This document shows, piece after piece, positions 46,317 to 62,867 of a stretch of DNA of 64,000 nt (position 1 is its first letter; the number at the start of each line of letters is the position of its first letter). Below the pieces are notes generated by a model that was not told the origin of the DNA, did no database searches, and worked only from the letters and a program-made list of their open reading frames with translations. The stretch lies in assembly GCA_007376385.1 (NCBI GenBank), contig VMGC01000003.1, positions 64,001-128,000 of the forward strand, in the 5' to 3' direction. The stretch comes from Parcubacteria group bacterium Gr01-1014_8. GTDB lineage: Bacteria; Patescibacteriota; Minisyncoccia; Phycocordibacterales; UBA2100. Both the position numbers and the translations under genes were made by a program.

Positions 46317-46420
46317 GTTAGAGATTCTTAGCGAGTTACTACGAGCTTAGAAGCTCTTACACCCTGTTAAATGCAACTCTTCCGAGGTTGCCCCGCCTCT
46401 GGCGGGATTTAACAGGGTTG
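46317..46420 (-). repeat. structured leader element, copy C (5' leader of rplC)
   Basis: Outer stem CCCTGTTAAAT/ATTTAACAGGG. Its inner hairpin 2 uses a different but still complementary sequence (GCAAC/GTTGC) from copy B (ACGACC/GGTCGT). Confidence 0.6.
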
Positions 46421-46466
46421 TGAAAACTATAGTCGTCCTCGCTTCGCTTCGACCCCTTAGTTTTCA

Positions 46467-46497
46467 ACAAAAAACCGCGCCACTGGCGCGGATGGTT
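46467..46497 (-). terminator. rho-independent terminator upstream of the rplC leader
   Basis: Sense strand ccgcgccagtggcgcgg followed by TTTTTTG. It ends transcription from the accessory genes upstream. Confidence 0.6.
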
Positions 46498-46672
46498 CAT
46501 CCGAGTCCAGTGGTCCCGTATTGGGACATGGGTGACCCGTGAGATGGCGGCCTTGCGGCCTATCTCATGGGTTCGCGGCACTATACACCCCATGAGATAA
46601 CAAGTCAAAAACTTCTCGTACAGAACAGATTTTCTATCTCACGGGGTACACGAGGAGTGTACGGGATGCAAA

Positions 46673-47107
46673 CTAACTTGTTGCAGGGGGATTGTCGGCA
46701 GCGGACGCCAGCGAAGCGTTTTCCTTTCTGTGATGAATATCGTAGAGATGTTTCAAGAGCACCATGGTAAGCGCCAACGAGACCAAAATGACGCCATATA
46801 ACGCAGGCATGGACAGCTGTCCTATCGGTCCTGCGGATGACTGGAAGCTGGAAGGAACAAACGTTTGTTCCGGAAGGAAATCTTCCGCGACTCCCTGTTT
46901 CTCTGCTTCGCCTGCAAGCGACTCAACTAAAACGGCAAGTTCGCTCTCAGATAGTTCGCTTGAACGCGGATCACTCAATAAAGATGCGCGTATTTCATCG
47001 CGAAGCAGTACTGAATCATCCGCTTGCGCAAAAACACTTATCGGGAGAACGAGCGCTCCTGCAAACAAAATCACTAGTGCAGTTTTTTTAATTGAATGCA
47101 CGTTCAT
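46673..47107 (-). CDS. hypothetical exported/membrane-anchored protein
   Basis: Signal peptide and C-terminal TM helix. No recognisable domain. Confidence 0.4.
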   Translation of the reverse strand: MNVHSIKKTALVILFAGALVLPISVFAQADDSVLLRDEIRASLLSDPRSSELSESELAVLVESLAGEAEKQGVAEDFLPEQTFVPSSFQSSAGPIGQLSMPALYGVILVSLALTMVLLKHLYDIHHRKENASLASAADNPPATS

Positions 47108-60121: not shown

Positions 60122-62820
60122 TGCCGTATACTGCAGGAGTGGAGCTCTTCTCGCGGCATCGCACGAAGTTTTTATACGGCGCTGCCGGCATTTCGGCATT
60201 CCTGATTGCCGCAAGCATCGTGTATCCCCCTCTGTGGCTGCTCGTTTTTGCGGCCCCCGCGCCTTTCTTCGCGGCCCTTCTCTCGCGTGAGATCGTTTCT
60301 TCCCGCATACATGCCATAACTGCGGGATCCGTATTCGGCATCGTCTTCAACGGCGTCATCAATGCAAGCGGATGGGCAGTATACCCCCTCGACTGGATAG
60401 GGGTCGACGCTCCCTTGCTTTCAGCGGCGATGATCGGCATTGCCTGGATCTTGCTTTCATGTCTGATGGGGATTACCAGCGCATTTTTTGCATTGCTCAT
60501 TTTCGAGATAAGAAATCGGCACCACTCCGATATTTTTCTGATCTCAAGTATTGGCATCATTTGGCTCATTGCCGAATCGTTCCGCGTGTTCCTCTTTTCC
60601 ATCTTTATGCTTGGTGCGGAAAGCGGCCTCGATATTGGATTCTCCCTCGGCTCGGTCGGATATGCGTTCGGAAATGCATCAAGCGAATTTTGGATAGCTC
60701 TCGCCAGGTGGGGAGGTGTTGCCCTCCTCTCGCTGTTTCCCATTCTGCTTGCAGCAAGCTTATCCTTCGCCATCGCCGCATGTATACGCAAAAAAAATGG
60801 AGTGCGTCGGTACCTCCTGTTATCGGGTGCCATTCTGTTCGTATTCCTCGGCAGTTCAGCTGCCGCAAGCTTTGCCGCCGAGCGGGCTCGCGGTTCAACA
60901 AGTGCCTGGAAAGATACTCCAAAACTGACGATCGTGATGGCGCAAACGAATTTTCCTGCTCAACTCACGCTGAGCACTGAAGAAAACGCCGAGCGGACGG
61001 ATGTTGTCTTTGACATCGCAGAAACGCTGAAACGGCTTGCCATCAAACCCGACGCGCTCATCCTACCGGAGGGCATAGGATCTCGCATCGATCTATCGAA
61101 CTACGCCGCGATATCCGAACTTTTGCCGGATAAGACATTACTCGTTCATGGAAAATACGAACACCGTATCGGGAAGCCGTCCGTCGTACAAGTCCGCTCG
61201 CACGTTATCGGAGGCGGTACAGAGGTCACTGACAAGCAATTCATCATTCCATACGGCGAATACCCTCCCTATCATCTGCAGCTGCCCTTGAAGTACCTCA
61301 ACTACCGGCTTTACGCGGCTTTAAAAAAGAATCGAGAGTACGTCGGCGGAAACAACGTTGCTCTCGGCAGTGCGGCAAAGATACCGGTAGGAGTGCGGAT
61401 GTGTTCGGAAATATTTTCTTCACGGCTCTACAAAGACTTAACAGCTACGCATGGTGCGGGAATCCTCGTGCATTCATCTTCAATTGCCATGTTCCACGAC
61501 TCAAATTTTATCCAGCGGGAAATGCGCTCGGCGGCGCGCATCCGAGCTGTCGAGAATCGCGTCCCGCTCGTGCAAGCCATGAACGGTGCGCGCGGAACTG
61601 CTTTTGATTGCCGCGGAAAAGAGCTTATCCCCGAATTCTCATCCGCACTTTTCAACGTATATTCCATTTCACGCGAAGCATCGTGCGTAGGAGAAAATGT
61701 CAACGAGCGGGCGCGACCTGCACAAAGCCGGCTCTCATGGAATAAAAAAATGAAAGCCGCAGCTTTACATGCGTGGTATTCGCTCTTTCCGGAACAGGCC
61801 GCTAAAAAGCTCGGTGGTCTGAACATGATGCAGATAAGTATACGGGAAACAGAACTCGAATATTGGATGCGGATTTTCGGTTACAAGAACATTTTTGACG
61901 AGATAGAGAAAGACGGTTTAGATCCCCTGCAACGGCCCGCTGATGCGCGCGTCGTTGTCGGCCAATGTCACACGCAAGCTCACTATGCGGGGCGGATGGC
62001 TGTAAAATTGTTTAACCTGTCAGCACTCACCGAAAATATTATTGATATTCGATGTGGATTCGGCTTTTATCACGGGATCATAGAAGCCTCGCTCGGAAAT
62101 TTGGGAAGTGATAGAAACGTCAAATCATTTTCCGAGAAGTGCCAAGCATATGGAGATAACCCCCTGCGTCGAGCCTCCTGCTTACACGCACTTGGCCATG
62201 GTCTCATGGTGTTCTACAATTACGACCTTCCAACGGTGCTCGAAAAATGCAGTTCTCTCCCCTCATCAGATCTTGGAAAAAAGCTGTGCTACCACGGGGC
62301 TTTTATGGAAAATATTTTCTCTGATCTGGGATTCGGTGTGTCAGAGCACGAATCGGAGTGGATAGGCGGAAGCGATCCGGACTTCCCTTGCGTGGCAAAA
62401 TCCCTCGATTCACTACCAGCCGCAGTACGGGAGCAGTGTTATGCGAATCAATCTCTTGTGTGGGGTTTAAAGCGCGGCGGATTTGACTTTAACAACGCAC
62501 AGACAGGCTGCGTGCGTGCACCACGAGAAGTAAGAGATATGTGCTTCATCGCAATCGGCTATAACGCAGCATTGCCAATAGCGCATGCCGACGAGAGAAA
62601 GGTTATCGAAGGGTGCGCAACTATGCCGGGATCTTCCTATGAAAAAAAATGTCTTGTGGGCGCATTGCTGATCCGCAGCACATTGTGGCCATCAGAAGCA
62701 GGTCTGAAAAACCCTCTATTTTGTTCCGCTCTCGGATATAACGACCTTGCACTGTGTGAAAATTTCGTCAAAGAAACGCTCGATTGGATATTCGAAACAG
62801 AAAAGGAGCCTGCACGTTAA
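60121..62820 (+). CDS. Lnt-like (CN-hydrolase) membrane N-acyltransferase fused to the same Cys/His-repeat domain
   Basis: Multi-TM N-terminus. CN-hydrolase triad context (LILPEG, HGKYEH, VRMCSEIF). C-terminal ~370 aa carry CHTQAH..., CLHALGHGLM, CYHGAF repeats. Its ATG overlaps the upstream stop (ATGA). Confidence 0.6.
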   Translation: MPYTAGVELFSRHRTKFLYGAAGISAFLIAASIVYPPLWLLVFAAPAPFFAALLSREIVSSRIHAITAGSVFGIVFNGVINASGWAVYPLDWIGVDAPLLSAAMIGIAWILLSCLMGITSAFFALLIFEIRNRHHSDIFLISSIGIIWLIAESFRVFLFSIFMLGAESGLDIGFSLGSVGYAFGNASSEFWIALARWGGVALLSLFPILLAASLSFAIAACIRKKNGVRRYLLLSGAILFVFLGSSAAASFAAERARGSTSAWKDTPKLTIVMAQTNFPAQLTLSTEENAERTDVVFDIAETLKRLAIKPDALILPEGIGSRIDLSNYAAISELLPDKTLLVHGKYEHRIGKPSVVQVRSHVIGGGTEVTDKQFIIPYGEYPPYHLQLPLKYLNYRLYAALKKNREYVGGNNVALGSAAKIPVGVRMCSEIFSSRLYKDLTATHGAGILVHSSSIAMFHDSNFIQREMRSAARIRAVENRVPLVQAMNGARGTAFDCRGKELIPEFSSALFNVYSISREASCVGENVNERARPAQSRLSWNKKMKAAALHAWYSLFPEQAAKKLGGLNMMQISIRETELEYWMRIFGYKNIFDEIEKDGLDPLQRPADARVVVGQCHTQAHYAGRMAVKLFNLSALTENIIDIRCGFGFYHGIIEASLGNLGSDRNVKSFSEKCQAYGDNPLRRASCLHALGHGLMVFYNYDLPTVLEKCSSLPSSDLGKKLCYHGAFMENIFSDLGFGVSEHESEWIGGSDPDFPCVAKSLDSLPAAVREQCYANQSLVWGLKRGGFDFNNAQTGCVRAPREVRDMCFIAIGYNAALPIAHADERKVIEGCATMPGSSYEKKCLVGALLIRSTLWPSEAGLKNPLFCSALGYNDLALCENFVKETLDWIFETEKEPAR

Positions 62821-62823
62821 GAC

Positions 62824-62850
62824 AAAACCCGCCTCTCGGCGGGTTTTGTG
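62824..62850. terminator. bidirectional hairpin terminator between the Lnt-fusion gene and rpsJ
   Basis: aaaacccgcctctcggcgggtttt: perfect stem with an A-run on one side and a T-run on the other. Confidence 0.6.
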
Positions 62851-62867
62851 GTGGGAGGCAACGCCTC

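Follow-up and report, generated by a model that had tools for sequence, protein, structure and literature searches.

The rpsJ/rplC junction in the window and in related genomes

The DNA analysed here is a stretch of 64,000 nucleotides from the Parcubacteria group bacterium Gr01-1014_8 (GenBank assembly GCA_007376385.1, contig VMGC01000003.1, positions 64,001 to 128,000 of the forward strand), hereafter the window, in which the genes for ribosomal proteins S10 (rpsJ) and L3 (rplC) are separated by a large block of accessory genes. Coordinates refer to the window unless a locus number precedes them. The rpsJ gene (62868-63239, minus strand) encodes a bacterial S10 (Pfam Ribosomal_S10, 1e-30; NCBIfam rpsJ_bact, 123.6 bits against a cut-off of 72.75) and the rplC gene (45708-46316, minus strand) a bacterial L3 (Pfam match; NCBIfam L3_bact, 223.2 bits against a cut-off of 142.9). 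The separation of about 16.5 kb described in the initial annotation of this DNA is borne out, since both genes score above the curated S10 and L3 cut-offs and lie 16,551 bp apart on the same strand, with 14-15 genes of both strands in between. No second rpsJ was found in the window and no S10 remnant near rplC. Downstream of rplC the S10/spc cluster is compact, with ten consecutive open reading frames (ORFs) from 39866 to 45702 identified by Pfam. The str-S10-spc-alpha cluster is a textbook case of conserved bacterial gene order; the window does not have the E. coli type of S10 operon, in which rpsJ lies directly upstream of rplC and is co-transcribed with it.

Terminator-like hairpins flank the junction, one after rpsJ and another before rplC. 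The former, ACAAAACCCGCC-GAGA-GGCGGGUUUUGU (62822..62849 on both strands; 62849-62822 in the direction of rpsJ), is a 12-bp A-tract/stem/T-tract hairpin between rpsJ and the convergent Lnt-like gene, and the 53-nt stretch that holds it folds with about -28.5 kcal/mol on either strand. The bidirectional terminator that had been proposed for rpsJ was thereby recovered. For the promoter assigned to rpsJ in the initial annotation, a promoter scan gave no consensus site; a GATAGTGC box (63317-63310), similar to the -10 box of rplC, is all that was seen. No Rfam family for an S10 or L4 leader reached its gathering score upstream of rpsJ, where sub-threshold hairpin matches occur at 63230-63800, and relaxed E-values yielded no family there either. 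The 548-nt stretch upstream of rpsJ also contains a very stable 13-bp GC-rich hairpin with a T-run on the plus strand (63388..63417; terminator scan and fold). This stretch is without a convincing ORF and no plus-strand gene ends at the hairpin, which could be the terminator of an unannotated plus-strand RNA or a processing site.

An identical S10 protein is encoded on three metagenome contigs with similar neighbourhoods. In the longest of these (ENA ERZ27284378, 90.7 kb) tuf lies 4.4 kb upstream of rpsJ, beyond the end of the window, and the tuf-rpsJ spacer holds eight small genes, including those for a RusA resolvase, a DUF2000 protein and a 51-residue hydrophobic peptide (L081 1-6059; window 63240-64000). 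In the contig of the window rpsJ is solitary, detached from its neighbours on the tuf side as well as on the rplC side. Given that the source is a metagenome contig and that Patescibacteria populations are often mixed, one may ask whether assembly or binning has produced a chimeric contig joining an rpsJ fragment to a ribosomal protein cluster. We consider such an artefact extremely unlikely: the identical rpsJ is found on three contigs in similar surroundings, the order rpsJ, block genes, small membrane protein, rplC appears in assemblies from other studies (L003, L095, L105 and L109), and composition is uniform across both joins.

Related loci, numbered with the prefix L, were fetched as best matches to rplC or rpsJ and are not an unbiased sample. 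The closest genomes are metagenome-assembled genomes of Paceibacteria/Kaiserbacteria. Block homologs lie upstream of rplC in similar order in L001 (L3 78% identical) and in the Kaiserbacteria locus L003 (73%), where rpsJ is 9.8 kb from rplC; the two have in common the small membrane protein, the exported protein, the tetratricopeptide repeat (TPR) protein and the propeller fusion described below, and the YcaO and SagB genes are found in L001 only. A further 80 metagenome loci were fetched with rpsJ as anchor, and loci with S10 at least 86% identical were taken as the close clade. Among its 24 informative loci none has rplC within 500 nt of rpsJ; five gaps could be measured (549-3898 nt) and the remaining 19 loci show 1 to 10 kb or more of downstream sequence with no rplC. 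The junction of rpsJ and rplC is again the place of block families (YcaO, SagB, the phosphoribosyltransferase (PRT)-propeller fusion, TPR, the 340-residue exported protein, the small membrane protein, the Cys/His-rich protein and the adenylating pair) in L001, L003, L082, L083, L086, L095, L097, L099, L105, L109 and L110. In the close clade YcaO, SagB, propeller, TPR and Cys/His-rich genes and the adenylating pair follow rpsJ in shuffled order.

The initial annotation had left the choice between an ancient operon break and a later insertion of an island, and had held that an rpsJ-distal layout of ordinary composition in relatives would indicate a lineage trait. The relatives support the break, and the composition speaks against an island. 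The window has about 50% GC; the GC fraction of the block is 0.504 and that of the flanks 0.499, and the tetranucleotide distance between block and flank (0.114) falls within the range of flank chunks of the same size (0.081-0.116). No integrase or transposase was found in the block in Pfam, NCBIfam and PHROG scans, no phage family in the PHROG scan and no tRNA in a tRNA scan, and a search for flanking direct repeats returned only short repeats at chance level. A recent genomic island inserted into an intact rpsJ-rplC operon of this genome might have been expected from the size of the block, its genes on both strands, its accessory functions, which are uncommon in small Patescibacteria genomes, and the RusA gene in the neighbouring tuf-rpsJ spacer, the RusA family being common in prophages. 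Yet the composition is indistinguishable from that of the flanks, neither integrase, tRNA, direct repeat nor phage family accompanies the block, homologous genes with 35-52% protein identity occupy the same junction in many independent relatives, and every informative close relative is split. With neither foreign composition, mobility marks nor absence from relatives, a horizontally acquired island was rejected, and we regard a recent insertion as very improbable.

The junction is variable far beyond the close clade. Among 79 Patescibacteria loci the rpsJ-rplC gap is under 70 nt in 18, 70-300 nt in 18, 300-1000 nt in 20, 1-5 kb in 20 and over 5 kb in three, so that 43 of 79 have a gap of at least 300 nt; gaps exceeding 1 kb are found in none of 30 loci from other phyla. 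The rplC-rplD spacer, used as a control, has a median of 14 nt. The description of this junction as one of the most conserved known accordingly fails in this class. The cargo is unrelated between lineages: in a Nomurabacteria locus (L014 1709-4518) a diversity-generating retroelement lies between rpsJ and rplC, comprising reverse transcriptase, bAvd and a target protein of the Fib_succ_major/lectin fold, the C-terminus of which recurs as a template-like copy (3120-3338); L011 (9311-9894) has a ParE-type toxin gene and a putative antitoxin; and L004 (757-1371) has a gene for a sigma-70 region-4-like protein. A search of the literature gave no earlier report of an rpsJ/rplC split in Patescibacteria.

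Terminator-like hairpins of the A-stem-T type follow rpsJ in 62 of 119 Patescibacteria loci as compared with 5 of 30 others, and are never present where the gap is under 70 nt. In L116 and L119 a terminator-like hairpin, a TATAGT box and the leader described below make up the whole gap of about 100 nt. Among tuf-rpsJ spacers, whose median length is 107 nt (to the alignment start), a terminator-like hairpin is present in 8 of 70 and absent in 62 of 70. Opening of the tuf-rpsJ spacer by 0.5-3.4 kb is seen throughout the closest clade and is rare elsewhere in the class. The detachment of rpsJ from tuf, which makes the gene look free-standing, could also be taken to mean that rpsJ itself was moved away from rplC by a rearrangement, with no insertion of genes between them. 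This is improbable in our judgement, though slightly less so than a recent island: tuf, rpsJ and rplC retain their ancestral order and strand, a collinearity that inversion or transposition would not preserve, and the gaps at this one site are graded among relatives from 0.1 to more than 10 kb.

We therefore favour, with a probability of about 80%, the view that the rpsJ|rplC junction is an old, lineage-wide boundary between operons that has been collecting accessory genes, and not the site of a fresh island.

A structured leader upstream of rplC

The proposed boundary is marked on the rplC side by a structured leader, all elements of which are on the minus strand. A promoter-like site, TTGACT-17-TATAGT (46608-46580; 10/12 matches in the promoter scan), is followed by a 5' hairpin, P0 (46571-46536), by the P1 hairpin GUCCC-AAUAC-GGGAC (46527-46513) and by CCACUGG (46513-46507). 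The last is the predicted 5' strand of an antiterminator and pairs with CCAGUGG (46486-46480) within a putative attenuator terminator, CCGCGCC-AGU-GGCGCGG followed by UUUUUUGUUG (46491-46465; terminator scan), which lies between the promoter-like site and the rplC ATG, 150 nt ahead of the latter. The leader element that the initial annotation gave rplC is borne out, and its upstream terminator at 46467-46497 corresponds to this hairpin and its T-run. The distal leader consists of hairpin H1, GAAAACUA...UAGUUUUC (46465-46422), and a long hairpin H2, AACCCUGUUAAAU...AUUUAACAGGGU (46419-46361). H1 and H2 also precede rplC in L034, L088 and L133, with compensatory changes in 7 of 24 pairs (four sequences), and both form in the minimum-energy fold. 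In L133 the H1/H2 element is the only one seen, the stretch read there being 150 nt ahead of rplC. Another promoter considered at about 46432, GACTATAGT, was rejected as it is the 3' arm of the covarying hairpin H1.

The 267-nt leader of the window folds with -119.8 kcal/mol as compared with -79.6+/-5.0 kcal/mol for shuffled sequences (z = -8), and the CCACUGG/CCAGUGG pairing is present in the minimum-energy fold. The alternative folds are close in energy, -26.8 kcal/mol for the antiterminator and -22.9 kcal/mol for the terminator. Equivalents of the terminator hairpin are found directly before the rplC ATG in L001, L003, L084, L093, L098 and L009, and in L001, L003, L084 and L093 the leader is likewise preceded by a TATAGTGC -10 box. 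More widely, the P1 hairpin and a CCAAUGG core lie upstream of rplC in many Paceibacteria, and were not seen as a recurring element before rpsJ.

Two forms of the leader can be told apart. The long form, to which the window belongs, bears a terminator; MAFFT mis-registered the terminator stems, and leaders of this form were parsed by hand and assessed by permutation of duplex energies. In 26 such leaders the segment that follows P1 pairs with its own terminator at a mean of -10.3 kcal/mol, as against -7.48+/-0.38 kcal/mol for permuted pairs, and none of 20,000 permutations reached the cognate complementarity. The two strands of the antiterminator covary, being CAAUGG/CCAUUG, CACUGG/CCAGUG (the window), CUCUAG/CUAGAG, CGCUGG/CUAGCG or CUAUGG/CCGUAG. 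The short form consists of P0, P1 and CCAAUAG followed by the ATG. A covariance model of it gave 18 matches in 2.07 Mb. Each ends at the start codon of rplC or close to it, except for that in L158, which ends with the contig, rplC being expected there; no match lies elsewhere. In the alignment of this form all cells (100%) are paired and compensatory changes are seen in 5 of 10 pairs, values reached by none of 500 shuffles. No Rfam family matched the rplC leader, either at the gathering threshold or at relaxed E-values.

We thus find a conserved structure, supported by covariation, that is located only upstream of rplC, and in the window a terminator hairpin with a U-run, placed between a promoter-like site and the ORF and mutually exclusive with an antiterminator. 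From these features, transcription attenuation is the most likely mode of action of the window leader. P1 is followed by CCACUGG, which is able to pair with the loop side of the terminator hairpin. By analogy with the S10 leader of E. coli (PMC3616713), a ribosomal protein, most likely L4, would exert feedback by holding P1, so that an excess of ribosomal proteins would let the terminator form. In relatives with the short form the element covers the ribosome-binding region, and control of translation is therefore suggested in addition.

Gene content of the block

The content of the block was for the most part described correctly in the initial annotation: the TPR protein, the exported-type proteins, the YcaO/SagB pair and the tandem adenylating enzymes all stand, and only the Lnt label falls short of its curated cut-off. 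Membrane, signal and anchor assignments of block proteins are based on hydrophobic segments judged by eye in the translations, not on a predictor. Next to rplC lies the gene for a small membrane protein of 144 residues (46673..47107, minus strand) with a signal-like segment at the N-terminus, a hydrophobic one at the C-terminus and the motif LRxxIRAxLLSDPR. A search with a hidden Markov model built from the proteins of the window, L001 and L003 located it directly upstream of rplC in these three and in L084, L088, L093 and L098. It adjoins rplC in seven of the eight close-clade loci that hold rplC, the window included; the exception is L085. In L084, L093 and L098 the rpsJ-rplC gap is only 549-790 nt, with room for little beyond this gene. 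Because it adjoins rplC and fills these short gaps, the small membrane protein is likely to be the founder cargo, and later genes would have entered between it and rpsJ.

The next four genes are all on the minus strand. The first (47112..48134) is an exported or anchored repeat protein of up to 340 residues, its start being uncertain, with the C-terminus VNIIPIFQEL; homologs occupy the same position in L001 and L003 and occur in L095 and L105, and no Pfam, NCBIfam or PHROG family matched it. A TPR protein with a hydrophobic N-terminal segment (48116..48982; Pfam TPR families) has homologs at 42-48% identity in L001 and L003, and others in L095, L099, L100, L105 and L109. The next ORF (48979..50121) encodes a protein of 380 residues with a hydrophobic N-terminal segment, for which Pfam and NCBIfam scans gave no family and only weak homologs were found (L003, L109). 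The 108-residue product of 50127..50453 combines an N-terminal hydrophobic segment with an ARADAP motif and a tail rich in Gly, Cys, Ser and Asp (GSCSSCSSCTSDGCSDGGCGGCAG...), and is a candidate substrate of the kind processed into peptides that are made on ribosomes and modified after translation (RiPPs). It is followed by an ORF for a hydrophobic, apparently polytopic membrane protein of 397 residues (50528..51721, minus strand), which matches no family; related proteins occur in L003 (30% identity, E 4e-44) and in L086.

Three plus-strand genes come next. The first (51720..53429) encodes a fusion of a PRT-like N-terminus with a PQQ/BamB-like beta-propeller that is recognised by Pfam propeller families. 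Its N-terminal match to a pyrE-like domain (56 bits) is below cut-off and that to Pribosyltran is weak; homologs of the fusion at 45-52% identity are present in L001, L003, L082, L083, L095 and L110. The second (53475..54902) encodes a YcaO-family ATP-dependent enzyme (Pfam YcaO, 152 bits) that scores 186.6 bits against the SagD-type model TIGR03604, whose cut-off is 219.25, and has as relatives in the Protein Data Bank (PDB) the archaeal YcaO proteins 6ci7 and MJ1094, and MusD. The third (54905..55633) encodes a SagB-family (azoline) peptide dehydrogenase (TIGR03605, 123.7 bits, cut-off 78.4) with a SagB-type dehydrogenase, CyaGox, McbC and BmdC as PDB relatives. The YcaO/SagB set is always accompanied by the PRT-propeller fusion. 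Small-protein counterparts of the 108-residue candidate, whose tail reads GSCSSCSSCTSDGCSDGGCGGC, adjoin YcaO or SagB in L001, L095, L099 and L109, and share with it a [HYR]A[DE]xP motif followed by a Gly/Ser/Cys-rich tail. Neither Pfam nor NCBIfam revealed an E1-like, SagC or McbB partner or a recognition element in any block protein or in the N-terminus of the YcaO, and no protease or exporter recognisable with the set was found. Convergent with the SagB gene, the ORF list includes a hypothetical Cys-rich peptide of 66 residues with a signal-like N-terminus (55731-55931, minus strand), upstream of which is the best promoter-like site of the region (sigma-70-like, 11/12 matches, 56085-56057). 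Being conserved in no relative, this peptide is doubtful, and as a RiPP precursor it was ranked below the 108-residue protein.

YcaO-type clusters have already been counted in genomes of the Candidate Phyla Radiation (PMC12153355). The set in the window resembles the clusters for azole peptides of the microcin B17 type (thiazole/oxazole-modified microcins, TOMM) in its YcaO, its dehydrogenase of SagB/McbC type and its Gly/Ser/Cys-rich candidate substrate. It differs in that no E1-like/McbB partner, recognition element, protease or exporter was found, in the 108-residue length and hydrophobic N-terminus of the candidate, in the PRT-propeller companion and in a YcaO that falls below the SagD cut-off. 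Together with the conserved, apparently membrane-anchored candidate substrate, the YcaO/SagB set offers a concrete target for studying the role of such enzymes in Patescibacteria.

Some azole peptides inhibit translation, and the YcaO of E. coli has been linked to methylthiolation of S12. It is therefore tempting to connect the set with the genes that surround it: its product could act on the ribosome, as an azole peptide at the exit tunnel near L4 and L22, or the YcaO could modify a ribosomal protein, and the location would be kept for co-regulation or immunity. The recurrence of YcaO, SagB and PRT-propeller genes at the junction in many relatives fits this idea. Such a functional tie may exist but lacks support, given that the cargo at this site differs from lineage to lineage. 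Other Paceibacteria hold unrelated genes there, and L003, L084, L093 and L098 are without YcaO at the junction. Furthermore, the block occupies both strands and is bounded by terminator-like hairpins toward rpsJ and toward rplC, which excludes co-transcription, and no immunity gene was identified in it. We consider co-location for function unlikely, if somewhat less so than the relocation of rpsJ discussed above.

On the rpsJ side of the set two tandem genes on the minus strand (56181-57458 and 57455-58813) encode PaaK/CapK-like adenylate-forming enzymes. Their NCBIfam matches, of the DVU1553, PaaK and F390-synthetase types, are all below cut-offs and those to CapK_C and AMP-binding are faint or weak; homologs of the pair (48% identity) lie downstream of rpsJ in L097. 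A Cys/His-rich protein of 421 residues with a hydrophobic N-terminal segment and repeated CHxxGH motifs is encoded at 58856..60121 on the plus strand, and its homologs lie downstream of rpsJ in L083, L095, L097, L105, L109 and L115. The last gene of the block (60121..62820, plus strand), convergent with rpsJ, encodes a fusion of 899 residues in which an Lnt-like hydrophobic region is joined to a nitrilase-type region and to a C-terminal domain rich in Cys and His. Its label is the weakest in the block, with 90.2 bits against TIGR00546, where the cut-off is 132.9, and with no Pfam match and no PDB sequence match; the protein is at most Lnt-like, and does not qualify as a curated apolipoprotein N-acyltransferase. 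The 421-residue protein is paralogous to the C-terminal domain of the fusion (61600-62820; E 3e-8), and both have CHxxGH and CYHG motifs. The shared Cys/His-rich domain matches no known family and may be a metal- or redox-related extracytoplasmic domain.

Elsewhere in the window there are one tRNA gene and one tmRNA gene. The former encodes an unusual tRNA-Ile with anticodon TAT (UAU) (3182-3256); most bacteria decode AUA with a lysidine-modified CAU tRNA. The tmRNA gene (10160-10550) specifies the tag peptide ANKTARGVLSPIQAKDLGLVFA.

A probable inter-operon boundary and its counterparts

The proposed old boundary between rpsJ and rplC can be set out as a sequence of steps. In this branch of the Paceibacteria, close to the Kaiserbacteria, the str/tuf unit would end after rpsJ and not before it, and the large ribosomal protein unit would begin there. 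Here rpsJ would follow closely on tuf and end in an intrinsic terminator, and rplC would open the next unit with a promoter-like site and a structured leader. Insertions would be tolerated at rpsJ|rplC because the site is a spacer between operons where no co-transcription is broken, and genes may have accumulated, been shuffled and been lost there repeatedly. In the clade of the window the first cargo was probably the small membrane protein, which would have stayed beside rplC. Later additions between it and the rpsJ terminator would include envelope proteins, among them the TPR protein, and the YcaO/SagB/PRT-propeller set with its candidate substrate; further ones would be the two adenylating enzymes and the Lnt-like fusion with its Cys/His-rich paralogue. 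The tuf|rpsJ spacer of this clade has opened as well, which leaves rpsJ a solitary gene.

A broader proposal is that in Paceibacteria the large ribosomal protein operon has come to begin at rplC instead of rpsJ, under the control of a previously undescribed leader family characterised by a GUCCC...GGGAC hairpin followed by CCAAUGG, with a short form on the ribosome-binding region and a long form, that of the window, built into a switch of terminator and antiterminator. In genomes that are otherwise streamlined, the spacer would then be a safe harbour throughout the class, where retroelements, toxin and envelope genes, the YcaO/SagB set and similar accessory modules come and go. We give this proposal even odds.

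Several points weigh against the old boundary and its leader. Promoter-like sites are fewer in the region than expected by chance (12 found, 20.4 expected), and promoter calls are based on conservation in relatives, not on the scan; more generally, gene identities, synteny, composition and the hairpins with their covariation are direct observations, and from sequence we infer promoters, the function of the terminators and the reading of rpsJ together with tuf in relatives. The strict rule for a terminator after rpsJ is passed by only about half of the loci. The short-form covariance model gives no match to the leader of the window itself, and the 26 long-form leaders are related by descent, a kinship that the permutation test ignores. 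Mimicry of 23S rRNA by the P1-CCAAUGG core was not apparent in E. coli rrlH, the 23S gene compared, where 7 matches were found and 9.7 expected. As to history, members with short gaps such as L084 could be secondary deletions and not the ancestral state, which makes the order of accretion tentative, and individual modules of the block could be old transfers that have since ameliorated.

Genes of the str-S10-spc-alpha cluster, those for S10 and L3 among them, are often joined into one alignment for phylogeny, and they serve to check the contiguity of Patescibacteria genomes from metagenomes. The present observations make adjacency of rpsJ and rplC unsafe as a marker of quality or synteny in these lineages. 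The split is a lineage trait of moderate interest; the parts worth following are the behaviour of the junction as a cargo site and the leader RNA. The latter is the most novel, being a candidate new ribosomal protein leader in organisms whose regulation is almost unknown.

Among known systems, the S10 leader of E. coli, with its L4-mediated attenuation (PMC3616713), resembles the leader of the window in having a hairpin immediately upstream of the terminator hairpin and in its position at the 5' end of a big ribosomal protein operon. It differs in that the window leader precedes rplC and not rpsJ, in the explicit antiterminator pairing of the window leader and in the lack of any sequence or Rfam similarity. 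The L4 leader candidate of Archaeoglobi (Eckert and Weinberg 2020, PMC7247131) is likewise a structured leader directly before rplC-rplD-rplW-rplB; it is archaeal, no Rfam model matches the window leader, and homology is unlikely.

The arrangement of the genes also has counterparts. In archaea, cyanobacteria and plastids the S10 gene ends the str unit (S12-S7-EF-G-EF-Tu-S10) and the L3 gene is the first of the next. Most Paceibacteria loci are alike in that rpsJ lies within about 100 nt after tuf, usually without a terminator-like hairpin, and in the window and its relatives rplC appears to open a new unit, as judged from the promoter-like site and the leader. The window differs in the detachment of rpsJ from tuf by 4.4 kb. 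To our knowledge a str-linked S10 arrangement has not been described before for Patescibacteria. The operon of Archaeoglobi starts at rplC (PMC7247131).

In other bacteria, separation of conserved translation operons has been found to start with small multigene insertions in inter-operon regions (PMC6735719; Brandis 2021, PMC8046335). As at the junction studied here, a few genes enter the spacer between terminator and promoter and selection for contiguity weakens, after which the spacer widens or the operons part; in composition the inserted genes are native, and transfer is not obvious. The boundary concerned there is tuf|rpsJ (str|S10), whereas the present one, rpsJ|rplC, lies a gene further inward, with tuf|rpsJ open too in the closest clade; the lineage, Patescibacteria, is also different, and the turnover of cargo is much higher. 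The model of insertion between operons followed by separation is in this way extended to a new boundary and to a new phylum.

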